DNA of 54,029 nucleotides, the filler included, from Diploschistes diacapsis (taxonomy: Eukaryota), in assembly GCA_023645945.1 (NCBI GenBank). It is 4 parts of 4 records of this genome, joined end to end, with 100 filler letters (N's around TTAATTAATTAA, not from the genome) between each part and the next. Parts side by side here need not be neighbours in the genome. Positions count along the whole stretch, not along the records: positions 1 to 13,461 come from JALAIB010000660.1; 3 more parts are not named here. The stretch is one strand, 5' to 3'. The notes beneath the pieces were generated by a model. That model ran no database searches and was not told the DNA's origin. It worked only from the letters and a program-made list of their open reading frames with translations. Of this stretch, positions 1 to 19,599 are shown piece after piece (the first letter of the stretch is position 1; each line of letters opens with the position of its first letter). A program made the translations under genes and the position numbers.

Positions 1-832
1 TATGCATATACGTTAATAAAAATTCAATAAGATCGTCGTTATATTGAAAAGGCAAGATTGGTTAAATAATAGAATCAATTTACCATGTAGTACGAATACG
101 TAATTGTATTTATTAATAAGTCTGAGAAGCTTTGGTGTCGAGTAGTAAATAATAAGTTTCTTTTGATTTCTTGCCGGGCAATGCTTGCTTCGCCCGGTTC
201 TTACAGTACGTGCTTCATCCTCGATATCTGTATCATTTATGAGTATTTTGAGAGAATAAATCTTTCTTTTTTTTTAGGATGGGTTAATTCTGATGTCTAT
301 CTATTATTGGAGTGAATTAAATATGTTAAGTTCGTCGACGTGGACCATACAATAAAACAGGGATTTAGCGTTTTATAGTTTATAAGATTTTATGTTTCTT
401 TAAGTGCAGTTTTGCAAGTAGATCGGCGCTCGCGAGGTAGTATTATTGGCCATAAAATAGGATTTGGTGCGGTATGGTTTTCGGGACATTTTTTTGATTT
501 CTCGCTTAGAGAACGGTATTTTTAATTAAATAATTTCCGTTACGTCTTTCTTTAATTACCGTATGTTATGACTGAGCATCGTTATGTGGTTATAAGTTAG
601 TTAGTTTATTGGTACTGTAGGGGTATGTACGGATCTTTTGTTGCATCGCTTTGAAAGGTTTATGGCGGTAGAACGTGGTATACGTTCTGGATATTCCTGT
701 TACGAAGGGACGAGAGTTGTACTTTTATCTTTTTATAATTTAGTATAAAGAGAGGTTACGTGATATTTAATCGCTTTTATCTCTGTTTTTCTTTTTGGCT
801 GCCTCTTGCTGAACTTATACAAGATATTCATT

Positions 833-2429
833 ATGTTCGGCTTTTTTTTGGTCCTTTCTGGACTTTCGTTTGCGTTTACTTCGTTGTTTAATCGAGACGT
901 ATTTGTTTAGTCTAATCTTAATATAACGTGCAGTATCCTCGTTTACAAATTTCTTAATCAGATTGAGTATCTAGGAAGCGTTAATTATACTACCGATATT
1001 ACCGGTATGGTCGTATCTGAGTCTTTGGAAGTGAATGGCGTTGATAGGTTTCGTAGTATACTGGTCGTTCCGGGGTTATTTTGATCTAAATTGTGTCTTC
1101 GCGCTTCTGACTTCGGAAGACCTTGCGGCTGGCGTTAAAATCCTTATAGCAACCAATATCTCTTTTACGGTTCGTAGTGGTGGCCATTTTCCAATTACGG
1201 GTATCAATAACATCAATAATAATATTTTTATTGTGATAAATAACTTCAATGACTCTATCTTAATTCTTACGTTAAATTCGTGAGGTGTTTCTGCTTTTGT
1301 TATGGGTGTTAATTAACGATAGGGGCCCATGTATAGTCTATTTGATTAATATAATTAAACGATAACGGGCGGCCGCGTATATTTCGTCGGTAGTAGTGTC
1401 CTTTTTAGAGGTGGTATCAGTTACACGGCTAATCGTTATGGCTGGAGTTCCGATAGCGTTTTTAATTTTGAGTTTGTTACGGGCGAGGGAAAGGTTTTTC
1501 AGATTAGTAACAAAATTTACCCGGATCTCTACTGGGCTTTAAAGGCAGGTTAGAATAATTACGGTATTGTTACTCGATATATCCTGCAAACTTATTTATA
1601 GGGCCCTGTTTTTGGAGGAATTATCGACGTCCTTCCTTTTGTTTTCTAAGATTATTTCGATGCTTAATAAGCCTATATCAATCCCGGAGGAGGAATCGAA
1701 GACTTGGATGTTGCGATAATGCCCGGCTATAACTACGTCCCTGCCGTAAATCAAATTAATGCAATATGGATCGGTATGTACAATATTTTTGAGATTAATC
1801 CGAAGGTTTTCGAAAACTTTACCAAGTTGGTTAACACGTTTTCGTCTATTAACGTGGGTCTTATATTCTTTTTTTCGTTTATAAAGCAGTCGGAGACGTA
1901 TTAAGGTTCTATCGCACGCGGTAACTGGTTCGCTATTGTTATAAAGATTATTAATAACACGATAAACTTTTAATATTAGATTCTCTACGATACCGTTAAT
2001 AAGATCGTGCTCGGCCTCGATGTTATCGTGGGCCTGTCGAGCGAGTTAATTACTTAAACTTTTATTCAAAAGTCGATCAATAACGGCGGCGATCTTATTG
2101 ATCTAGACCCCGTTAATGGTTTATTCGTTATTACGTTATATTACGTTCTTTAATTCGATGAATCGTAAGACGTTATTATGAAAACTTATCTAGAAACTTT
2201 CATTTCGAACCTTGACACCGCTATTAAAATCGATGGTTCATATTATTCGTTCATCTTTAATAATAATGCGGGTAACATCCAATTTCTTTTCACCTTCTAT
2301 GGTGCTGGCAAGAATCTGCTTAAGATGAAGGCTATTGCGGAAAAGTACGACCCTTAAAGCGTTTTTTAAAGACTAGTACCGGGATTCAAGCTTAATAGGC
2401 CAGTGATAAATCTCTATCTTTCGTATTAA
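833..2429 (+). pseudogene. FAD-linked oxidoreductase (BBE/6-HDNO-like, probably secreted), RIP-inactivated
   Basis: ATG 833 with hydrophobic leader; GTATGG intron near 1005; covalent-FAD motif FTVRSGGH; C-terminal KYDP*SVF*RLVPGFKL (KYDPxxVFQ-type). Many in-frame TAA/TAG at probable Gln/Trp codons. Confidence 0.85.
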
Positions 2430-3169
2430 AAGGTCTACGTAGAAGCTGTATATTAAATGTAATAAAATGTATCGCTAGTATTCATATAGGAATGTATATT
2501 GTTTAATTTGATAACAGCTTAGATTAGCTTTCGTAAATTTAATATAATAATAAGTCATATAATGTTTAATAATCTTTTACACTTAAAACCCTTTTAGCGC
2601 CTTTGATTCCTAAGAAAGCCATTTATGGTAGCCTTTTGCTATAGCTATGGTACGAGTAGTTCTCGAATCGAGCTACGGACGCTCTATATATTTGTGCCCG
2701 AGATAGTTGAAGCACCGAAGTACCGTGATCTTGTTGTATGCTAACTAGAGCAAAGAGGTATAAAAGACTTGGCTGTGTAATGAAGACCATAAAAAAAACT
2801 CGCGAGGATAGGAGTGCGGTTAAAGATTGGGCAAAATGCGCGCCCAAGGGCTGACATGATTTCCGTATGGTGAGGTCAGAAATCAGGATGAAGTTAGAAG
2901 TGTGATATATTATCTCGAGGCTCGAAATACTTATGTGTAACTTTAATAAGTGTAGATGTATGGAAAGTGTGCTGTTTCTCATTATTATATGGTTAAATCA
3001 AAATTATGGATGAAGGTATCTTTATAGGTTGTATTAAATGTTTGGTTCGAAATATCGAAAGTTCTGGTTACGATGTGATCTTAAAGGTAATGTTTTTAAT
3101 CGTGTATGAAGATGTATTTGTGATGGATTATCTATTGTTTCCTAAGTATACCGACTGGTTCATATTTAT

Positions 3170-5020
3170 ACTCAACCGTTAGTTTCCTTACTTTATTTTC
3201 GTATTTGGGATCGATATTTTTTACTTATTTTTTTTCTAGTTCTTGTATATTTTTACATCGACCACCGGCTCTTGTCGTAGATTGATAATCGCGTTAATAA
3301 AGTTTATAAAATACGTGTCTAACTTGATTCAACTCCGGTTATCGATAGATTATATGTTATATTTAAATATTAATATCGTTATTATATATTAGATCTCCGT
3401 CGCGTTTAGATAGCGTCTCGGATAAAACGTGCTTCTTCTATTGAATAATCGAAATGTATTAGCCGGCGGTTTCATACCGATGAAGCGAGTCGGATCGAAG
3501 GCGTCGACGGACGCGGCACGGTTATCTTTATCGACGACGCTAGCTTACAACGCCGCGTCTGAATGCACGACCTGATTGGGTATCTAGATCACGTTGTTCC
3601 GCCGTAATAGGTATATGTCGTTGAAACGGAAGTCATCGCGCACTAGTCGCGCGTTCGTTTTATATCTAATGTGCCGCAGTATCTCGTGCTAGATGGCGAT
3701 GAATATGAGATAATCGTCACGTAGGCGTTTAAGGTCGATGTAATACACGAGTTCTTGTTTCCTTTCGCCGGTTTATCCTTCGGTTCCGTCGCCGGGTTTG
3801 TCGTTTAAGCCGTTTTTCTTAACGGGTTGTATGCGTGTTGTGATAAGCGGTTTAATTTCACGCCGGATGCTAGTTAGGATCTCTGGATGCGAGAAAACAT
3901 ATCATGCGGTTCAGAAGCCCGAAGGCGTTGTGTTGGCTAGTACGCCGATGTTGAACGTCGTTTCCAGCCTAGCTGTGTCTCGAGCCGAGATGTCGTGCTT
4001 GACGGCTAAGTCGTGTCGAAAGTTGATTAGTATAGAGCCGAACCGCTGGTAACCGGCGCCGAAGTAAGTTTTTAAAACGTCGCGTACGGTTTCGCGCTCG
4101 CGATTGGCGGCAGGTGCGAAGAATGAGGGTAGAATACCTAGAAGTAAGACGGTGAAGCGGTTCTCGTATTTTTTAACAGAACGAACACGACATACGTATA
4201 TTAGAAAATCTGAGTAGAAGAATAAAGGAGAAAGAAAACGTAAAGCTTAAACCTTGCGTGATGATTAATTGAACGGTAAAGAATATAACGATAAAGAAAA
4301 TGGAGAAGAGAGAGAGGATTATGAAATACGTACTAGAAAGCATCGTACACTGATTCTTGTTTGAATGGATTATGGGGCCCGTATACGGCATTGTTGGTTA
4401 TAAACGTCATAATACGACGTATCTAGCGGAACAGATTGATCTACACGTCCTCGGTTTCTTTATTTTTAGGTATTAGCTTTACCGCTATGCGTATAACGTT
4501 TAATATAATATTTTTAACGATATTATTAAGGCTCGGGCCCGGTAGTAGCGCGTCGTGAATATTTCGGTAGTCCTCGGGCGTATAATTCATAACGCCGCGT
4601 TCGCTCGTCACGTTATTTAGTATAATCTTTAGAGTGGCCGGGCCAGCGGCGGTTATACGCGTAACCACCTTATTAACTAGATTGGCGAAGGAGAGGATCT
4701 TATTAGCGCGGTAGATGATCTATATGAACTCGGGTTTATTAACGATGTAAATTTTATTATTTATTATATTGACCGCGTAGATAAAAGGCCGGTGCATACG
4801 ATTGCTATATAACGCCGAAAGTTAGTTATAGAGTCGAGGGGAAGTAGTTATAAGAATAAGTCTAGGTTATAGAGGAAAGATAATTACGAGATATGTATAG
4901 ATAAATAGATCGGTAAGTAATTTTCGTTCTGTGGTCGTAGTAGTAAAGAATTTACGTAATACTTACTTCCCCGTTTATCTGTTATTTTCTTTTTATAAAG
5001 AGTCTGGTCTTTTCATGAAG
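3170..5020 (-). pseudogene. Cytochrome P450 (CYP7-like fungal type), RIP-inactivated; ends approximate
   Basis: AFDPTRFI (PERF motif) near 3480-3503. The heme region FRLFNRRSTFYPRRY reverts by transitions to FRPFGGGSTLCPGRH. GTAAGT donor near 4967 on the minus strand. Multiple stops. Confidence 0.8.
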
Positions 5021-5794
5021 CCGAAAAGTGAATCTATTTTATAATAAGATTTCGTATTTTAAAGGGACGTAATAATTTATTTTATGTTATAATAAATTAA
5101 TCGTGTATTTAATGATCGGAATTGTTTATTTTGTAAGAAACGGTTCATCCTTTAACGTCGATGTGCTAAAGACATATTATAATACAAAGCTAATAATATA
5201 TATACCGGCTATTATAGTTTATAAAATCGCTGGCGATAATAATTGCACGTCGTGTAAGGTATTTTAGAGTTTCGCGTCTATGGTGGTGTCTGTACATAGG
5301 CAAGTTCTTAGGCGTATATATTGGATGATATAGGTGGATCGTGCACGGAAGATATAATCGGAGCGAGGACTAGATAGGTATTGTAACGAATTATAGATGT
5401 GAAAAAGAATATACGCCGGATTTCCACATCATGTTTAGCGGCGGACTATGTTGCATGTCAAGAGTTTTGGTACCGTTTAATTAGATCAGCTTTTCTAAAG
5501 TACTTTCAGAGGTTTCAAGGCTTCTACTGCGCAGGTACCGGATTTTGCAACAGTTTTTATTAAGTGGTCCTTGCACGGTTTCGGATATAAGAAGGGATTT
5601 ACTCGATGTGAACGAGAGGAAAAGTTATTTTGATATGGAAGAAATATCATTTTAGGGGGAACGGAAATTACTCGATACGGTTAATTTAAAAACGAAATTA
5701 AATTAAACCCGTATTAATTAAATTCGTGGAGAAAGTACGTGATTATATTAGATCGATTGTATCTTAATTAGGACTAACGTAAATAAAAGTTTAC

Positions 5795-7046
5795 TAACAT
5801 ACGGCTAACTTCTTCAAGTTGGCGGGCTTTAGCTAACTTTAACTAACTTTTAAATATCGAAGAGTAATTTTGTTCTAAAGTTCGTTACCGTTCATTTAGT
5901 ATTGCAGCTCTTGAATATAATTCCGAATTCGGGAGTTAGGGCTATGAAAAATGGCCAGCTGTTTAGTAGCGAGTTTATTATACGTTACTTCTTATTCGCG
6001 GATCATGGACTAGAATATTCTCTATGCCTGATCGTATCGCAGGTTGGCTTTATCCGCGATGACCTTGACTGCGGAGTACAAGACTGAACCTTCGTTATGG
6101 CCCGTTTCAGAAACCTTCAACTCCTTCTCCCAACTATAGATGTCATTGATTACCGAAATGTGCTTTAAACAATTGTATTCTAGTGTTAATATTGAAGCGT
6201 GTTCGGCGGGAATTAAATCGAGATTCATAGAATATCGCATGAGCGCAGATAGGAGCTTATTTAATGCAAATCAGTATTCCGTATATGATGCTAGAAGTTG
6301 GAAATTACGCCTTTCCCACATCTTTCTCGCGGTAATCCAGATACTCGCCCAATTCTTTGATCTGAAGTCGAACCTTGTCGGTCTGGGCACGCATGAAAAG
6401 AAAGGTAGGTTCCAAAACTTCGTTGGTGAGTTTGCGATCGAGTGCTCTCATGGATTCTTAGAGGTCGTATATTATGTATTTAACAGGAACGCTGTTTTCG
6501 AGCGATTAAGCACTTATCCCATATCGTGGAGAGATTCTCATTACTTACGATCTAGGAGGACGTTATTTCGAGCGATAGGAATCAGTCTTTTATTATAGGT
6601 TTCGTTATTTACAAATGACATGTGTTCAAGGATATCTATAGAATCAGCCTTCTTAACATAATAATGGAAGGAAGTGACACGATACCATCGATAAAGAATA
6701 GAATGGTTAATAGTTTGCACGTATGGGTTATTCGATCATCGTTCGCCATAAGAAAGTAAAAATACGTGACACGACTGAATCCGGCATTAATAAAGACTCT
6801 TTTAACCTTCTCGCTCGGGAACGACCAGTGCTCGAGGAAGTAACCGTCGACTTCAGCGGTCACTTCGTCGACGTTGGGATGGTAGAATGGCGTTTATTTA
6901 GACGGCGGTATGGCCTATCTTAACGGCTGACGCACGGACTTAGGGGTATGGGCTAATTTAATGGAGGAGATGTGTGGCTTTAAGCCATGTACGGGAACGG
7001 GTCCGAAATCCTGAATTAGAATTATATTGATAATTCGAGTTAGCAT
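5795..7046 (-). pseudogene. Aristolochene-synthase-like sesquiterpene cyclase, RIP-inactivated
   Basis: EVDGYFLEHWSFPSEK..FINAGFSRVT..DDRI..CKLLTILFFID|D (DDxxE motif split by an intron); NSE motif INDIYSWEKE; C-terminal GNEL*NKITLRY. Closely follows fungal aristolochene synthase (Ari1). In-frame stops at Trp/Gln positions. Confidence 0.9.
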
Positions 7047-7499
7047 AAATAGAAGAGTCCTGAATTAACGGTTGACATAGAACTTATGGCGATATATATA
7101 TTAGGAATATGTTAGAACCCGATCGCTAATTATGATGTATGATGACCTTAGGTTTGTCATTTTCGTGGAGGCTTTTTTAAGCTTTCGAACACGCGGGAAA
7201 TTTTGATATATATGCTACAGAACTAAGTTAGAGATGTTATATTCTTCTTTCAAGAGTGATTGATTGTCTCCGCTACGAACTTTCGGACATTATTGCATTA
7301 GGCAAGCATTCGGTAGGTATTCGACCCTTATAAGAACATTAGTAGGTCTATAATCAACGTTTTACGTTCTATACGATTCGGGCGGGGCTACATATAGTAT
7401 ATTCTTAAGACTTATTATAACCTCATAGAGACCGTTATTAATAAGGATGGTATAAAATATAGGTAGGAGATCTGAATAGCTTTGGAGTAATAGATTAAG

Positions 7500-8936
7500 A
7501 TGAGTTAACTTTAATATATTTTTAGTTCGTTGGACGAGATTATGTTTTAATTGGTAATGAACGTAATCTACTGTTTTCCATATGACGATCTAAAGAGGAA
7601 TGAATTATTTTAAATCTTATAATTAAGACTGTAAAAAACGCGCAAGAAATTACCGTTCCTAGCCGACGATATGAGCCGTTAAAAAGAAGATGTAGCAATA
7701 GATAACAAACGATTCGGCGGCTTCACTTTTTAGTTTATTAATGATATAATAGAAGTTAAGATTAAGAATAACGACCTTATATCAGAAAAGTCTTAATAGA
7801 AATATACTTATGTAGAATTATAAACGCGTTAGATGCCTATAAACGAACTAAACGTTTAAAATCTTTTTCCCGATAATAATTACGATGGATTTGTAAATAT
7901 AAAGTTCTTTCGGGCGCGGATCATTTTCATCCGGGACGGCTACTTTATTGCTATAAATAACAGTTATACCTATATGGATGCTTAAGGGTTTACGATGCTG
8001 ATAAGGATTTAGGCCGAGGAGTATTATGTTTTTTAGGATGTGTCGGAAACGTTTGTAAAGAAGTTAGTTTTTACGCCCGGCATGCTTTCCGCCGCCCTGG
8101 CCAAGCAATTTTCCTATGCCGATTATTACGTTGTAAAACATAAGCTGTAGTCATGGAAGCTTTTAGGGTTGGATTAAAGGAGATTGAGCGATAAAGGGGA
8201 TTTAGCGGTCCTTTACGTATCCGTTCTTAAGATTAATACTAGTATTTTTTCTTTTAGTGCCGAAAGTTAGGAACGCGTATATGAAGCCGGTAGCTTAGAT
8301 GAGAACGATTTCCAAAACGAAGATCTTATCTGGGTCTCGTTTAACGATACGCTTGTTATATTGTTATAAAGGTGTATTATGAAAGCCCGAGTATCGTTTT
8401 AGATAAATAAGCTATATAATAAAAACTTTATGGTTTTAGTAGTAATCAACGGTCGCCGTGTTTTTTACCTATCGATACCAATAAACTATATTAGTAACGT
8501 GATTTTCTGCTATCTTATAGACCTGCCCGTCATACAAGTTATAATACCCCGAACAACTCTTGTTTCTCTAGCCTTGGCCATCCGAAGGTCGGTAGAGAAA
8601 AGCTTTGATATTAATGTTTTGGCGTAAGCTGTCGATTTGTCGATTTATATTCCGGACGTTCGCGTGTTAGGTAACGCGTTTATTAGCTGGTTTATCGAGA
8701 AGTTAATCACGACTTCAGTCGTGGATCTCTTTATATACGAGACGAATTGGGATAAGCTGTTTAATAAATTAGAGTTTTATAAACTTCTTTTGGGGTAGTT
8801 TAATGGTATATGTATATTGTAGCTACGAAGGCTGGATGATTCAGTAGAAATATTCATCTCGTTAAAGGAACATGAGATGAAAAGACTGCGTACAGATTAG
8901 TAGTTCGTTAAATATGCCGAATTCATGTTTTTATAA
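7500..8936 (+). pseudogene. Acyltransferase, Tri101/transferase family, RIP-inactivated
   Basis: About 479 codons. N-terminal FSSLDEIM (LSPLD-type); HxxxD motif read as YTYMD (probable CAT>TAT); C-terminal YETNWDKLFNKLE (D-W-G-type motif) and EMKRLRTD**FVKYA. Many TAA/TAG. Confidence 0.8.
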
Positions 8937-9329
8937 GATTAGTTTATTTTACAAAGACCATAACGACGTTTAGCCCTTATATACAGGCGATGAGATACTA
9001 TATATATAATGGGTAGAAATTAAGAAATTTGGTTATTTGGTAGCTTCGTTATCGTTAAATCTCTATTTATTTGTTGCTCGCCACCTATAAGCCAAAAATG
9101 TGCCCAGCTAAAAAGAATGACAAGTCTCTCGTAAAAGCTTTTCCCATTATGGAAGTATCCGGTTCCAGAACTGGCGCTAGTATGTGTAAAAGTAGGTCCG
9201 TCCTGCCTGTACGGAGGGAGAGGCGTGGTACCTAGGGCTACCCTTGTTCTACGATTATAATACAGATTTGAATTGAATTATTAACTGACTTACCTTCCTA
9301 TTCAACAACAACGCGTATCGTTTTCTTAC

Positions 9330-11028
9330 ACGATAGCATTCGATTTAGAACTCCTAGATACCGCGGCCGTTGATGTGCTACTTAAATTACCACGACCAGC
9401 CTTCATAATTATTATTATTAACGTAATCTTTATCATAATACTAATATAATAATTAAAGTTACGCCGGCCTCGGTTAATAAAGAATATATATATTACTAAA
9501 TTAATAGATAGGAAAAAAATAATTACTAAAACTCGACGGGATTTCGTTTAGAATTATGGTAATATACTGATCGAAGGATATTAAAAGTCAGATACAGGTT
9601 TCTTCTATCTACCTTCCCTAGCTAGCGAATGTCTAATAATTTTCACACGGTATATCGAGAAGTTCAAGAACGTACCCGATAATATTATCGATTTTACTAA
9701 TAGTTTTTTAAAAATGTTTATAGGCGAGTATACCACTATCGGGCGGAAATGGCATTTATATCCTCCGGTGATCAAACGTGATCTCAACGTTCATCTATCC
9801 GAGATAACCTTAAACGTATAAGAAGAAATTTACGATGCTTATGAAACCCTAATGCCGTCTTGTGATACGTGGACCAAGGTGGATATGGCCTAAATGTTTG
9901 TCGAGATCATTTCTCGTGCTTTGAATCAGATGATGGGCGGTAAAACATTAAGTCGGAATCCCGAGTGAATAAAGATTTCGATCGATTTCACCGCCGACAC
10001 TTCTATGGCCGCTATAAGCTTAAAGTAGTATCCGTTATTTTTAAAACCCTTAATTCAGTACTGGATCCCTGAAATAGTTAAGATCCGTTATCACGGCATC
10101 GTGTCGCGTGAAACTATAGTTCCCATCATCCGTAAGCGCCTCGCGGAACAAGAACGGATAAGCGAGAAACATTAACCTCCGGTTAATCTACTATAGATGT
10201 TATGAGATGCTGCATAAAGTCCTAATAAGACGCCGGAATTTATAACTTATACGGCGTTAGCTATCAGCTTCGCTACGGTGCGTACCAGTTCTTCAATACT
10301 TATATATATCTTGTACGATCTTTGCACGCGATTTAAGTACGTAGAATCACTACGATAGGAGATCGAGACCGTTCTCGTAGAAGAAGGTGATTTTATTAAA
10401 CCGGTTCTAAACCGGCTCGTTAAGTTAGATAACTTTATAAAAGAATCGTAACGTTTTAATCCTATTATATTTAATAAATAGCTCCCGTTTTTTTTATTTT
10501 TTATTAAAAGGTTTATTTTTTTCTCGTCTCGACTTCGATTTCATCGGTCTTTCTTTTATATTGGTTTTTTTTATTTATACGTTTAAAATCATCTTCGGCC
10601 GTCTTATCCGGCGCGACCTATGTTTCAACGATAGTCTCGTTATTCCTCGAAATACTCTTATCGCTGTCCCGATTTACGCCGTCATGCAAGATCTACGTTT
10701 TTTTTTTAATGATTTTGACGGCTTCCGCTTCGCCTCGCCGCGCACGGACAACAAAGGTAGTACGATAACCTCGTCAATCCAGTAACTATAATCCTCGTTC
10801 GTCACTATTAACTAGTCCAATTTTAGCTGGAGATATGGCAAACATATCTATTCCGGCCGCTTCTTTGCCGCGAACGAGATCAAGATTATTGTCGCGTTCT
10901 TACTGGTTCATTACGAGTTCAAGTTCGTTGGCGAACGATACGAGCGTTTACGGAACCTCGACTTTGAGCTACAGAACATTGCAAACCTGAGCGTGAATAT
11001 TCTAATCAGGAAGCGGAAGGCGAGATAA
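9330..11028 (+). pseudogene. Cytochrome P450 (ent-kaurene-oxidase/CYP68-like group), RIP-inactivated; 5' end approximate
   Basis: KLDNFIKES*RFNP (ExxR), FDGFRF (PERF), SWRYGKHIYSGRFFAANEIK (degenerate WGYGKHACPGRFFA heme motif). Intron near 10472-10590. Confidence 0.85.
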
Positions 11029-11392
11029 TGGTCGTAAAAGAGAACAGACGTGGCTATTGATCTAAAAGGTTGATTTTGGATGTGGCTAAGAGTTGTAAGA
11101 CGTGGCCCATCTTGGAACAGAAACAATGAACGAATTCTATAAATAGTAATAATATTAATACGGAACGATATATATTTATTATATTAAGCGTTAATAAGGG
11201 ATAGTTTAAGACCGATGAATCATGGGTAAGCTTATATTAGTTATTAATACTTATACGAATGTTTTATAAGTACATGAATTTATAAAAGAGGTTTAAATGG
11301 TAGTAATAGTTCAGTGTAATTTTTTTAATTAGTCGTTATTATTCTTATTTATGAGCGATTTTTTCCCCCGGTTCTTGCAATTATGTAATTAT

Positions 11393-13461
11393 TTAATCCT
11401 TTAGTTTCTCGTCCGTTCTCGTTATTAGCCTCAGGCCGATTCCCTTTCCAAGGTTTAACGTAACCTTGCCAGCGTTTTTCATCCAAATGTCGGCGTGTAT
11501 CTTGACCGGGTTCTCGTTCGGTGCTAGCACGACGCGGTACGTTTGTAGTAGCGTGACGATATAGGCTATGAATTCGGCTTGCGCGAATTTACGCCCAAAA
11601 TACGACCGCGTATCGTCGTTGAAGGTTAGTAGCGTGCCGCGCATTTACCGCGTACGGTCCGCGCTTACGACTTTTTTCTCGGGGGCGCCGGGACCCGGCG
11701 GAGTACTAGACGCGGTTGTTGTGTTTTGGTAGCTGATCGTTTTTGTTCCGATCGGAGCCGGGGTGGCGGTTGCGAGGTCGTTGTCTGACGATAAGCCCGC
11801 TGCGGCTAGCCAGCGAGTCGGGTCGAGGACCTCGGGGTTAGGCCAGTAGTGGGGGTTGAAGTGCACGCCGGGCGCCGAGAGGTAGACGCGTGCTTCGGCG
11901 GGGAGGACGTGGGGCGTGGGCGGGCGCGAAGAGTCCGTCGGATGCGAAGCGTAGATGGTATTGCCGTTATTCGTTATTTTGGTGATGAGCGTAACGCTAG
12001 GATAGAGGCGGAAAGACTCGTATTATTTAAAGGAAATAAAGAAAAGAAAAGATTAAAAAATAAGCTTAACGTGTTATACTCTAGATGGAAGAATATATGC
12101 ACTGCAGAGAATTAGAGAATAAAACCAAAGAATAGGCATTGAGCGAAAAGTAGGACGTACCATAAAGGCGTAAATATAGACAAGCTTCTCGAAATCGTTT
12201 TTATAAAAGAGTTCAGGACGGCCTTCGGCCGTAGCGGTAGCGATAACAGTGCTGATTTCGGCCATAATCTTGGTTTAGATATCTTAATAAAGGGCGAGGA
12301 GAATTAAACCGTAAATGATGGCATTCGCGGTCGTTTCATAATTTATGAAGAGAAAAATATCTTGATCAAAAGCCGCTCCTTGGTCTAAAGTATTTTATTA
12401 AAGTTTATTAAAACAGATACGCATTTATCTGTAAGAAGATAGATAAAGAGGTTATTTATGATTTTATTTTTAATAAATAAGTCTTTACGGTCCTGGCCGG
12501 TTGTTTTCTAATTTAATTAGGCCTCGATGCGGGATGCGCGTATGATAGACGTCAGTAGGTTCGCCCGCGACGTGTTGTTCTGATGTTGCTTAGGTTTTTT
12601 TTTTAAATGAGCACGCTCGGAGCGAATTATGCCGCGGATATAATTTTTTAGTTACTAGTATACTAGTTTAACGGGCCTTAGCGGTGGACATAAGTTTATA
12701 AATCAATTCGGAAACAGTAGGATAAGAATCATATTGGCGGTTGTGTCGTTAATAGTCTTAAGGAATGAAAGTTAGAAGTTTGGCGTCACGTCTTTCTTTT
12801 CTATATTATTGATTTAGTTAAGTCGTTTGTCGAAGCCGGTTAGCGAAATCACAATCAGTGTTAGTAAATTAACGTTTATATGAAGTTTACGTCGACTTTT
12901 TTTAAATTAGGTTTCCGATAGCCGGCGTGTTTGGTAGACCGTCTCGTCCTATATTATGTCGTTAACGCCCGATAGATTATTAAAAGGCGGGGTTGTTATT
13001 CGGACGTGGAATCGATAAGTTTTATTTTCGGTCGTGGCGACGTTGGGTTTATATAGCTTAAGTAATTTATATTTGTTCGGTAATTTGATAAAATCGTTAC
13101 GGCGGTTTATGACATTTCATCTTATGCTCGCGTCGGTTGAATAGCAGATGATACCTTTCGGAAATATATATAGAAAGATGTCATCGTATTTCTCGTAAGT
13201 ACGATACTTATTCTTTTATTATTAATCCTTGATGATGAAGCGGTATTAGCGAGGTTATCTTTTTTTTTGTTTTAAGTAACGGTTATAGATGTATCGAAAG
13301 AAAGGTATAAGTAGGAGATTTAAGATTTTAGTCTTTAGGACTGGCGTGATAACGTAGGGAAGGCTTGTAACTCGTGTTTAAAAGATATATCGAGTAAGGT
13401 TTATAGTCTTATAAACGATTAATAGAATTATTAAACTTGTAAAAAAGAAGAAATATTAATG
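11393..13461 (-). pseudogene. Cytochrome P450, RIP-inactivated; 5' end probably cut by the contig end
   Basis: FLFINYETTANAI (I-helix AGxETT-type), YWPNPEVLDPTRW, MRGTLLTFNDDTRSYFGRKFAQAE (degenerate FSDGARSCLGRKFA heme motif). Premature stop at 11645. Confidence 0.85.
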
Positions 13462-13561
13462 NNNNNNNNNNNNNNNNNNNNNNNNNNNNNNNNNNNNNNN
13501 NNNNNTTAATTAATTAANNNNNNNNNNNNNNNNNNNNNNNNNNNNNNNNNNNNNNNNNNNN
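13462..13561. other. Assembly gap with artificial six-frame-stop spacer
   Basis: N44-TTAATTAATTAA-N44, identical at three positions in the window. Confidence 0.97.
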
Positions 13562-14479
13562 CCCCTCATCATTCTTTTTTTCTTTTTTTTATTCTTTTTT
13601 TTGAAGCGAGTCCAGGATACATCCCTATCCGGGAAGCGGTAGAGAAGAAAACAAGAGGAAACTTGGCGGAATAGCTGGGCATGTATATTATTATATAGCT
13701 TTGGATCCAATGTATATATTATGCAATCTGTGTTTATAATCTTGTCCTTCGGGACATTTGGTCAATTTGAAACGATACAGAGAAGATTAGCATGGCCGTG
13801 AGTTCGATTACCGTTGAAGTCAATGAATGATGCCCTTTACTGATGTCTGGCAGCCTGCACTAAGGATGACACGCTTCTACAAAGAGACGCTATAAGTTTT
13901 TTTTTTTTTAGTTTTTGTTCTTGTAAAAAGAGAGAGTAGTAGCATTGTTGATTGTTCAACATATTTGTGAATCTTATAATAAAAATTTTTTTACAGAGTC
14001 TAAAGGGCATGTTTGATTGATAAACTGCGCTTCTATTTTTGTTGGCTCAAATGTCTAAGTGCAACCCCCAGCGCGGTTGAGATGCTGGATTTCCTGCTGT
14101 TAATAGCTTTACATATCGTTCTCTCGCGTTGACCGGGAATCTGTCATTGCAGCATAAGCAGTAAGCGCACCACTGCTGAAGGAAGCAAAGCTGAAAAAAA
14201 TGTTGCCCGCGGAGAGTGAAAACCCCATCACTCCGACCCTTCTCTTATCTTCTTCCATAGTAATACCATTAAACATTCTTTCATGTTCCCACTTTATCGT
14301 CACACCAATGTTCTAGTACTTTATCATCCGTCAAAGGTTTCTATTTCCGCACTATCCACAACGTCCTCATCACACTCAGCCCTAACGCTGTGCCTTATAC
14401 CTGTCTCTGTCTCTCAGCTCTTGGACCTTCTTTAGTTTCCTTGGATCAGCCTTGCGGGCTTTCAAGCTTCTTGGATTGG

Positions 14480-17498: not shown

Positions 17499-19292
17499 TT
17501 AGGAACTAGATGGAATCAAGCCTTCAAGATACCCCCTCAGACCGGGATCACACGCATATACATACGTTCCTCGGATCCCGCGCGTCATGAGCACGGCATA
17601 GATCTGCGTGATGTATTGCAGCAGGTCGTCGTCTGTGTAGCTTTTGCCGAGCGCCGGGTTATTCTCCTTACCCTTCTTGTCAAAGTACGAGTTCCGATCG
17701 ATGGAAAAGCGCCTTCGCTCGGGGTCGAAGCGCAGATCGGGACCGATGATGACACCGACGTAGTTCAGGTCGTAGCCCTGAACCGTGTGGATCGATCCCA
17801 CTTCCTCCAGCGCGTTGCTGGAAGCGATCCAGTCGGTGGGCGTGCTGTTCCAGCGGAGCCGCGTCTGGCCGATTTCAATATCGAACGCGCTCCTGTCCCT
17901 TTTGCTCTTCCACTCCCATGCGTAACCCGCGACCATACGTGAAAGGCCCACCTCGGCCTCGCGTCGGAAGATCTGGCCTTGCATCTGTGCGACACTGTCG
18001 AACAGGCGAAAGTCGTATTCCCCAAAGTCGTGTCTCGCTCGTGGGAAATCTTGCTTCGCTGCTGGAAGTGAGGAAGGGCGAGGATCGAGGATCCAACGAA
18101 CGTAAGATATAAAGTCCGATCCCGCTTGAACTCGCATCTGAGTCCGAAGCTGAAAATAACGCCCCGAAGCACGGGTGTCGGCAATGAGTTCCGAGAGCAG
18201 CTCCGAGGGCAGATCGGCTGGTCGAACGCTCTGTGCTGCGTCCAGGAAGAAGATCTGATGTCGGCTCTTCGTCCTCATCCAATCAAGCTGCGTCTTGCTA
18301 GTGTCGTTGCTGCCGAAGAGCTCTCTTGTGATGGTTGCGAACTTGGTGTTCAGCCTCGCTGATGATTGGTTAGCACGTTGATTGAGCCGATGGGTCTCAT
18401 CTACTAAAAGCAGATCGAACACCTGATCTGCTTCTCCTACGTCGAAGGGCGTCATGACCATGGAGGGTTTAAGCCCAGGCGTCTTGCGGAAGACCTTCTT
18501 GATGGATTCTCGTAAAGATTGCTGCGGCACCACCAGACCGATCCGCAGATTCTGGAGGAGCCTCTGATTGGTTTCGGTGAAGAATTCCGAGAAGCGCGAG
18601 TCGCTGTCTAGATCTTCAAGCGAAGTAAATGTTTGAATGTCAACGAGCAATTTGATCATATAGATGGCTACGACCGTCTTGCCTGTGCCCGGATCGCCCT
18701 GGATCACTGCCATGCTATTGGCGCCCCTTTCGAGGTCGATGAAGAGTCCCTTGACAATTTCATCCACAGAAGCCGCTTGATCTTCCGTAAGTGCTTTGAA
18801 TGGCGACAATTTGAAGAGATCACTGTTCTCGATTTCAGGAATACTCCGCGTGAAAACTCCATCGCGCTTGAGTTGTTGGAAGATATTGCGGAAGGTCTCG
18901 CGGTACAACTCTCGCTGGTAGTACTTGGCCTCCGTGATCCCGTTGTTGCGGTTAAGCACCCGATTGGCGCCTTCGCCAGCCAACATTTTAATGAGGTAGG
19001 ACTCCAAATCAAGGCAGACCGACTTGTTGAACCTCTCGTCGATGAGGACGCGGACATTCTTCAGGTGCTGCTTCGCGGGCGTCTCGAGGTGCTGCCGCAT
19101 CCGACCGGCGGCGTTGAGCGATTCGCCAACGTAGATATCCCTCAAACCGTTTGGATTACCCCGTGCGGTGGTAGCATGGCCGTCGTCCAGCACATACACG
19201 ACAGGCCAATTGCCATGCTTCTCATCGTGCAGCTTCCAGCTCATGACGGCGTCTTTGGAGAAATCGAGCCGCGCGATCTTACAGCTCATCAT
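17499..19292 (-). CDS. GIY-YIG nuclease fused to DUF2075 (Schlafen group-3-like SF1 helicase), bacterial type, intronless, 597 aa
   Basis: VVYVL...IYVGES..GRMRQH...LESYLI..NRN (GIY-YIG motifs); Walker A GDPGTGKT; Walker B LLLVDETHRL; QMRV, IHTVQGYDL and YAVLMTRG (SF1 motifs IV-VI). Uninterrupted GC-rich ORF. Confidence 0.9.
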   Translation of the reverse strand: MMSCKIARLDFSKDAVMSWKLHDEKHGNWPVVYVLDDGHATTARGNPNGLRDIYVGESLNAAGRMRQHLETPAKQHLKNVRVLIDERFNKSVCLDLESYLIKMLAGEGANRVLNRNNGITEAKYYQRELYRETFRNIFQQLKRDGVFTRSIPEIENSDLFKLSPFKALTEDQAASVDEIVKGLFIDLERGANSMAVIQGDPGTGKTVVAIYMIKLLVDIQTFTSLEDLDSDSRFSEFFTETNQRLLQNLRIGLVVPQQSLRESIKKVFRKTPGLKPSMVMTPFDVGEADQVFDLLLVDETHRLNQRANQSSARLNTKFATITRELFGSNDTSKTQLDWMRTKSRHQIFFLDAAQSVRPADLPSELLSELIADTRASGRYFQLRTQMRVQAGSDFISYVRWILDPRPSSLPAAKQDFPRARHDFGEYDFRLFDSVAQMQGQIFRREAEVGLSRMVAGYAWEWKSKRDRSAFDIEIGQTRLRWNSTPTDWIASSNALEEVGSIHTVQGYDLNYVGVIIGPDLRFDPERRRFSIDRNSYFDKKGKENNPALGKSYTDDDLLQYITQIYAVLMTRGIRGTYVYACDPGLRGYLEGLIPSSS

Positions 19293-19599
19293 ACTTCCTG
19301 CTGTTTCCTCGGGCCTTATCTACGGGGTACTTTTTGCGCGTGGCTTCCAGCTTCTCCAGCACAATCTGCTCGGGATCGGCGCCGATGCGATCGGCAAGAA
19401 GGAGACAATAGGTTAGTACGTCGGCGAGCTCTTCACGCACGCGCTGAGGTTCGGCACCGGCACTCCACTGGAAGCACTCGAGCAGCTCGCCGGCTTCGAT
19501 GGAGATGCTTTTGGCGAGGTTCTCCGGCGTGTGGAACTGTGCCCAATCGCGTTCGGCGACGAAGGCCGCGAGGGCGTCGTGGACTGTTTGACTGACCAT
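19279..19599 (-). CDS. MazG-like all-alpha nucleotide pyrophosphohydrolase (dCTPase/RS21-C6-like), bacterial type, 106 aa
   Basis: FVAERDWAQFHTPENLAKSISIEAGELLECFQW...EELADV...KYPVDKARG...KY: ExxE...EExxD metal-binding pattern. ATG at 19599. Stop lies 14 nt inside the next gene. Confidence 0.9.
   Translation of the reverse strand: MVSQTVHDALAAFVAERDWAQFHTPENLAKSISIEAGELLECFQWSAGAEPQRVREELADVLTYCLLLADRIGADPEQIVLEKLEATRKKYPVDKARGNSRKYDEL

Follow-up and report, generated by a model that had tools for sequence, protein, structure and literature searches.

How can every gene of a biosynthetic cluster be destroyed while its reading frames stay in place? The question is raised by a contig of Diploschistes diacapsis (GCA_023645945.1), a lichen-forming lecanoromycete whose 29.1-Mb assembly of 4361 contigs comes from a lichen metagenome. 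The window analysed, 54,029 nucleotides in all, consists of four unrelated contigs of similar length joined by artificial N-linkers, and its positions 1-13461 are the complete contig C3986 of this genome (G000). A glycine decarboxylase encoded on another of the four contigs is identical to a protein that bears the name Diploschistes diacapsis, and its next named matches are from Thelotrema and Xylographa, in keeping with a lecanoromycete host. C3986 carries six broken genes, encoding an FAD oxidase, three cytochromes P450, an aristolochene-synthase-type sesquiterpene cyclase and a Tri101-type acyltransferase. We are highly confident that they form an aristolochene/eremophilane cluster, dead in all its genes, and that repeat-induced point mutation (RIP) was what killed it. 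Our best guess for its history, to which we assign a probability of roughly 0.55, is that a once-functional cluster was killed by RIP after duplication, its partner copy then being lost. The features concerned are these:

1-13461, no strand: contig C3986, RIP-affected end to end, GC 0.30-0.47.
833-2396, plus strand: pseudogene of an FAD-linked oxidase (FAD_binding_4), 19 stops, one 43-bp GT-AG intron at 1005-1047.
3329-5016, minus strand: pseudogene of a cytochrome P450 with an approximate 5' end and tyrosine at the heme-ligand position; its two delimited exons hold 14 stops.
5845-6990, minus strand: pseudogene of an aristolochene-synthase-type sesquiterpene cyclase, 5' end at about 6990, four exons, 8 stops.
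7500-8935, plus strand: pseudogene of a Tri101-like acyltransferase with 26 stops in its single exon, divergently oriented to the cyclase just as in the intact locus L043.
9372-11028, plus strand: pseudogene of a cytochrome P450 (PF00067), 18 stops.
11420-13461, minus strand: pseudogene of a cytochrome P450 (PF00067) with 20 stops, truncated at its 5' end where the contig stops.
13462-13561, 27015-27114 and 40541-40640, no strand: artificial N-linkers; the sequence after the first belongs to other contigs and is not the neighbourhood of the cluster.

The six co-located genes lie where a first-pass annotation had put them, and the identities it proposed are supported. The cyclase matches aristolochene synthases in the PDB (E 3.5e-30 and 2e-24), and the oxidase has a PF01565 match just under the cut-off (E 1e-5). 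The acyltransferase has no Pfam match of its own, its top relatives being Tri101-like transferases with PF02458 and PF22664. The P450 at 3329-5016 also lacks a Pfam match; it resembles, at 25% identity (E 1e-26), a P450 adjoining the aristolochene synthase of locus L038. Relatives of the P450 at 9372-11028 adjoin aristolochene synthases in L035, L047 and L051 and also on contig C91 of the same genome, and a relative of the last P450 is present in the intact cluster L051. A metagenome scan for aristolochene synthases returned 32 loci. The broken cyclase exon, used as query, yielded no homologue, and a scan with a relative of the acyltransferase found no locus.

Across the examined exon spans the six genes hold 105 in-frame stops. 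Against this number no frameshift was seen in exon alignments to intact homologues, each exon aligning in one single frame. The annotation's claim that frames and introns are largely kept stands; the introns are in their places, but canonical GT..AG ends could be recognised by eye only in the oxidase intron and in cyclase introns 1 and 3. Its report of many stops at Gln or Trp codons agrees with the alignments: all eight cyclase stops lie opposite Gln or Trp of the intact orthologue in L043, as do 15 of the 24 aligned acyltransferase stops opposite these two residues. Damage to catalytic residues, likewise proposed, is found in some of the enzymes only. The heme-ligand position is tyrosine in all three P450s (alignment-backed for that at 3329-5016) and the acyltransferase histidine position also reads tyrosine, whereas the metal-binding motifs of the cyclase and the RSGGH motif of the oxidase are undamaged. 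Within the last P450, ahead of its heme motif, positions 11600-11950 form a GC-rich (0.60) low-complexity stretch; over 11501-12000 the damage lies almost only on one strand (CA 6, TG 31).

The kind of mutation responsible can be read by comparison with L043, a syntenic orthologue among the 32 loci of the scan, where the cyclase and acyltransferase are intact, with 65-70% DNA identity in the main matches. In the cyclase tree the window copy is sister to L043 (support 100/99), with a branch of 0.55 against 0.097 for L043. Over 2243 aligned coding columns the window shows, relative to L043, 248 C>T against 47 T>C and 191 G>A against 60 A>G, and of eight tests on transversion pairs, seven show symmetry. 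As L043 is GC-richer than the window copy, the changes were polarised with outgroups. At conserved cyclase sites (codon positions 1 and 2), 31 of the 40 polarised window changes are C>T or G>A, compared with 6/13, 13/53, 4/10, 7/37 and 3/17 in five intact controls, and these changes affect about a fifth of the conserved C:G sites of the cyclase (31/162). Where the neighbouring base is conserved, hit rates are 117/239 at CpA, 98/227 at CpT, 29/111 at CpC and 29/160 at CpG. Both the comparison with L043 and the polarised cyclase sites are thus dominated by C:G>T:A change, in line with the proposal that RIP was the cause.

The RIP indices that the annotation had called for point the same way. The composite index is positive in 13 of the 14 1-kb windows over positions 1-14000, versus 2 of 40 in the remainder of the stretch, and by this index the RIP-affected span exceeds 4 kb. 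Customary cut-offs for RIP are a substrate index of 0.75 and a product index of 1.1; on C3986 the substrate index falls below 0.75 in 10 of 13 1-kb windows and the product index rises above 1.1 in 7 of 13. The genome has a PF00145 methyltransferase match on contig C2868 (L033, 100 bits) and a second candidate on C4022 (L034), which from their motifs we take to be RID-like and DNMT5-like, respectively; neither of the two candidates in this fragmented assembly is a match for a DIM-2-like enzyme.

Dead genes could also arise by ordinary pseudogene decay under methylation-linked or AT-biased mutation, with no RIP at all. The presumed DNMT5-like methyltransferase would suit such a process, as would the single skewed transversion test (G>T against T>G in the acyltransferase, p=0.044). 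However, CpG is hit less than any other context and is over-represented on the contig (observed/expected 1.76), transversions are not raised (7 of the 40 polarised cyclase changes), the stops are unaccompanied by frameshifts, and the damage has a strong strand bias. Decay of this kind is largely refuted by the substitution spectrum, and we regard it as extremely improbable.

Was the block hit as a unit, and if so how? The plus strand of the contig has 2158 C against 2915 G and 336 CA against 656 TG. TG exceeds CA in 25 of 27 windows of the contig, compared with about half in most controls, and the excess is seen in genes of both orientations and in the spacers; only 8936-11030, where both strands are damaged alike, is an exception to the bias. 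CpA retention averages 0.25 along the contig against 0.58-0.66 in controls and shows no trend with distance from either end of the contig (rho about 0 over 27 windows). The damage spans 13.5 kb without a gradient, which bears out the annotation's view that the cluster was damaged as a block. One RIP round affects a single strand, and about 92% of the RIP clusters of Neurospora are described as one-stranded (PMC7296669). We infer from the shape of the damage that a few heavy rounds struck the block as a unit.

Under duplication, the whole block would have been present in two copies in one nucleus, either because a segment had been duplicated or because a large mobile element had inserted a second time. 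A few heavy rounds of RIP would then have hit it directly, one or more of them along the plus strand for most of the 13 kb and one or more on the opposite strand, and the partner copy may have segregated away, been deleted, or be missing from the assembly. In favour of this reading, the CpA retention of 0.25 on C3986 is as low as at the RIP-positive ends of other contigs of the host; at five such ends retention drops as far as 0.10-0.28, in most cases rising again over about 0.3-3 kb. Duplication is also favoured for damage this heavy because a duplicated Starship is described as heavily RIP-mutated with its unique cargo spared (PMC11623301).

Several observations weigh against duplication. 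The annotation had suggested that a sister copy may exist, and none was found: searches of the assembly with the DNA of one P450, the left-flank DNA and the six proteins returned the contig itself and distant paralogues, and among the contigs of the source run there was neither a copy at 80% likeness nor a variant letter. Of three runs compared at this likeness, two contain next to nothing of the stretch; it is present in one lichen-metagenome run, which may itself be the source sample, so that the variant check gives no independent support. The preference for CpA is weak when neighbours are not conditioned on (CpA 0.49, CpT 0.43, CpC 0.41, CpG 0.35). None of the genome's 14 DUF3435 matches, the mark of a Starship captain, lies on C3986, and no terminal feature was seen there. 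RIP-type change is also found throughout a cluster that is single-copy. Loci L055 (5331-19378) and L051 (5331-15180) are the same aristolochene cluster on two metagenome contigs, with 98.5% identity. L055 has an AT-rich block at its left and a 4186-bp AT-rich insert with inverted ends, and over about 10 kb of single-copy cluster DNA it differs from L051 by 111 C>T or G>A changes against 12 in reverse (unpolarised), spread over all genes. In the 500 bp nearest to the repeats their density is 28.7 per kb; farther away, out to 3.5 kb, it is a flat 5-10 per kb. They are strand-skewed (69:42), fall mostly at CpA and CpC, and introduce one stop each into the frames of the oxidase and a P450. As L055 shows both flatness and strand bias, neither is exclusive to duplication.

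The absence of a sister copy does not refute duplication, as an unlinked partner can segregate away at meiosis following RIP and AT-rich DNA assembles poorly. Nevertheless, L055 is possibly a case of RIP leakage caught early, and it shows that no duplication is needed for RIP-type change to extend to all genes of such a cluster, at about 1% of sites as against about 20% on C3986. This weakens the premise that the range of leakage is too short, as changes lie 3.5 kb from the nearest repeat and across the whole cluster.

C3986 may therefore have been a single-copy cluster in a repeat-rich compartment, eroded by cumulative leakage from repeats at its flanks over many sexual cycles after selection had lapsed, with no duplication involved. 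The missing sister copy and the changes throughout the L055 cluster, flanked as it is by an AT-rich block and an AT-rich insert, would both be expected on this account, and RIP of linked single-copy genes among repeats, with a gradient, is published (PMC2973834). RIP-positive repeats are also common in the assembly (24 of 101 sampled 1-kb windows), and nine of 11 small RIP-positive contigs match each other and hence are repeats; a Pfam search of three pieces from such contigs gave no match, so they are known as repeats alone. However, a load of about a fifth of the conserved C:G sites far exceeds that of L055, the damage on C3986 is ungraded, and many small rounds should have evened out the strands, in conflict with the CA:TG ratio. 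Nor was a source of leakage seen: an own-genome DNA search found no repeat in the left 830 bp of the contig, and a search for internal repeats gave nothing of note, just short AT-rich chance matches, which agrees with the annotation's statement that no transposon is recognisable here. We consider erosion by leakage a real contender, at somewhat less than even odds.

If duplication took place, the vehicle could have been a large mobile element, and the annotation had proposed cargo of a Starship. The 14 DUF3435 matches, 10 of them with stops, lie on eight other contigs and none is linked to C3986; even a RIP-positive 2.3-kb DUF3435 fragment on C1427 (L102) has no link to it. We regard the involvement of a Starship specifically as doubtful. 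On contig C3847 (6467-7911; L027, L028 and L030) a DUF3435 gene has no stops in its three matches.

The assembly also holds a second, undamaged aristolochene-type cluster, on C91 at 8270-30640 (L024, L004-L006). It comprises a cyclase, three P450s, three short-chain dehydrogenases (SDRs), a transferase, an FAD oxidase, a major facilitator superfamily (MFS) transporter and a weak AflR-like match, and just 2 of its 33 windows, at the contig's end, have a positive RIP index. C91 was considered as the trigger of RIP and rejected because of its distance: its genes share about 30-48% protein identity with the dead ones, there is no blastn match at E 0.01, and it is not sister in the tree. Loss of the C3986 cluster may have been tolerated because this intact one remains. 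The two clusters set the D. diacapsis genome apart from strains that typically carry one eremophilane cluster (PMC13736955).

The pairing would be accidental if C3986 came from another fungus of the thallus and had been mis-binned. A lichen metagenome in 4361 contigs leaves room for this, and composition cannot place RIP-damaged DNA. On the other hand, the dinucleotide signature of C3986 fits the small RIP-positive contigs of the same assembly (CpG observed/expected 1.3-3.4), and the contig's pieces have a depth of 16-71 in the source run, a range for its own pieces alone. We think mis-binning very unlikely.

What the cluster once made can be proposed from its gene content. The dead pathway would have led from farnesyl diphosphate to aristolochene, followed by oxidation by the three P450s and the FAD oxidase and by acylation. 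In described eremophilane pathways the cyclase makes aristolochene, and a P450 and an SDR then yield the C8 ketone (PMC13647387); in the framework of PMC13736955 this core is the cyclase Emp2, the C8-hydroxylating P450 Emp9 and the SDR Emp4. By its PDB matches and its place in the tree, the C3986 cyclase is of the aristolochene-synthase (Emp2) type, and the three P450s are candidates for Emp9, one of them having relatives that adjoin several aristolochene synthases. C3986, whose last gene is truncated by the contig end, showed no SDR, and none of 24 own-genome SDR matches is heavily broken. L051 shares five of the six C3986 genes and has an SDR in addition; its P450 at 12713-13480 was considered as the orthologue of the first P450 (3329-5016), which was not supported (E 0.083).

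The annotation's assignment to PR-toxin-type eremophilanes is thus kept as far as the aristolochene type goes, the PR-toxin label being too specific. The markers given for PR-toxin, or group A, are the P450 Emp6, the isomerase Emp7 and the acetyltransferase Emp8 (PMC13736955), and the one transferase-family gene on C3986 does not by itself establish orthology to PR-toxin enzymes. Judged by its genes, C3986 appears to work like an eremophilane cluster and is not filed as PR-toxin. With the clusters for PR-toxin, sporogen-AO1 (isa) and deoxyphomenone (DPH) it shares an aristolochene-synthase-type cyclase, P450s, an oxidase and a transferase-family acyltransferase; unlike in these known clusters, its genes are all dead and no core SDR (Emp4) was seen among them. 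Two genera that presumably share the host's family, Graphidaceae, are Sarcographa and Graphis. Eremophilanes have been reported from cultured mycobionts of both (review PMC12113121), and lichen eremophilanes may have a source in the intact cluster on C91, which is a candidate for this role.

Each ingredient of this history is already known, and C3986 is a new, well-supported instance of known processes. RIP regions of lichen fungi are described as repeat-derived, with genes practically unaffected in Cladonia (PMC12542154; bioRxiv 10.1101/2025.11.25.690456). Like those of Xanthoria and Cladonia, C3986 is low-GC, RIP-positive lecanoromycete DNA of more than 4 kb, but it consists of six single-copy enzyme genes with no repeat seen. 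With the derelict Starships described from Paecilomyces and Spiromastigoides (PMC11623301) it shares a multi-gene block heavily mutated as a unit, in their case after duplication; unlike them, it has no captain or terminus, and the cluster itself was hit where their unique cargo was spared. At AvrLm1-LmCys2 of Leptosphaeria maculans (PMC2973834), as on C3986, several linked single-copy genes have RIP alleles and no paralogue, but the damage described there is graded with distance from repeats and that on C3986 is flat over 13.5 kb. The accessible text of the literature, including PMC8254937, PMC10971195 and PMC4210507 and covering few subscription journals, did not turn out to describe any complete biosynthetic cluster that RIP had fossilised.

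C3986 implies sexual cycles with RIP in this lineage. It is a clear example of a whole secondary-metabolite cluster lost by RIP, and not by deletion or gradual decay, in a group whose genes are described as practically RIP-free. As gene callers miss such fossils, counts of cluster loss understate this route. Eremophilane clusters are reported to move between fungi (PMC11980549), and it is conceivable, though we think it unlikely, that lichen-associated ones turn over by RIP-driven birth and death, arriving or duplicating on large mobile elements and being erased as blocks. On that speculative view, each erasing sweep would be strand-coherent and longer than 10 kb, and the genes themselves need perhaps never have been duplicated; L055 would represent an early stage and C3986 the final one, a natural series for long-range RIP of unique genes. 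In any case, the C3986 locus together with the L051/L055 pair could be used to gauge the reach of RIP into unique DNA.

Elsewhere in the window, on another contig of the same fungus, positions 17502-19319 (minus strand) hold an open frame of 606 amino acids that includes a helicase domain of Schlafen group 3 (PF09848, E 6e-65).

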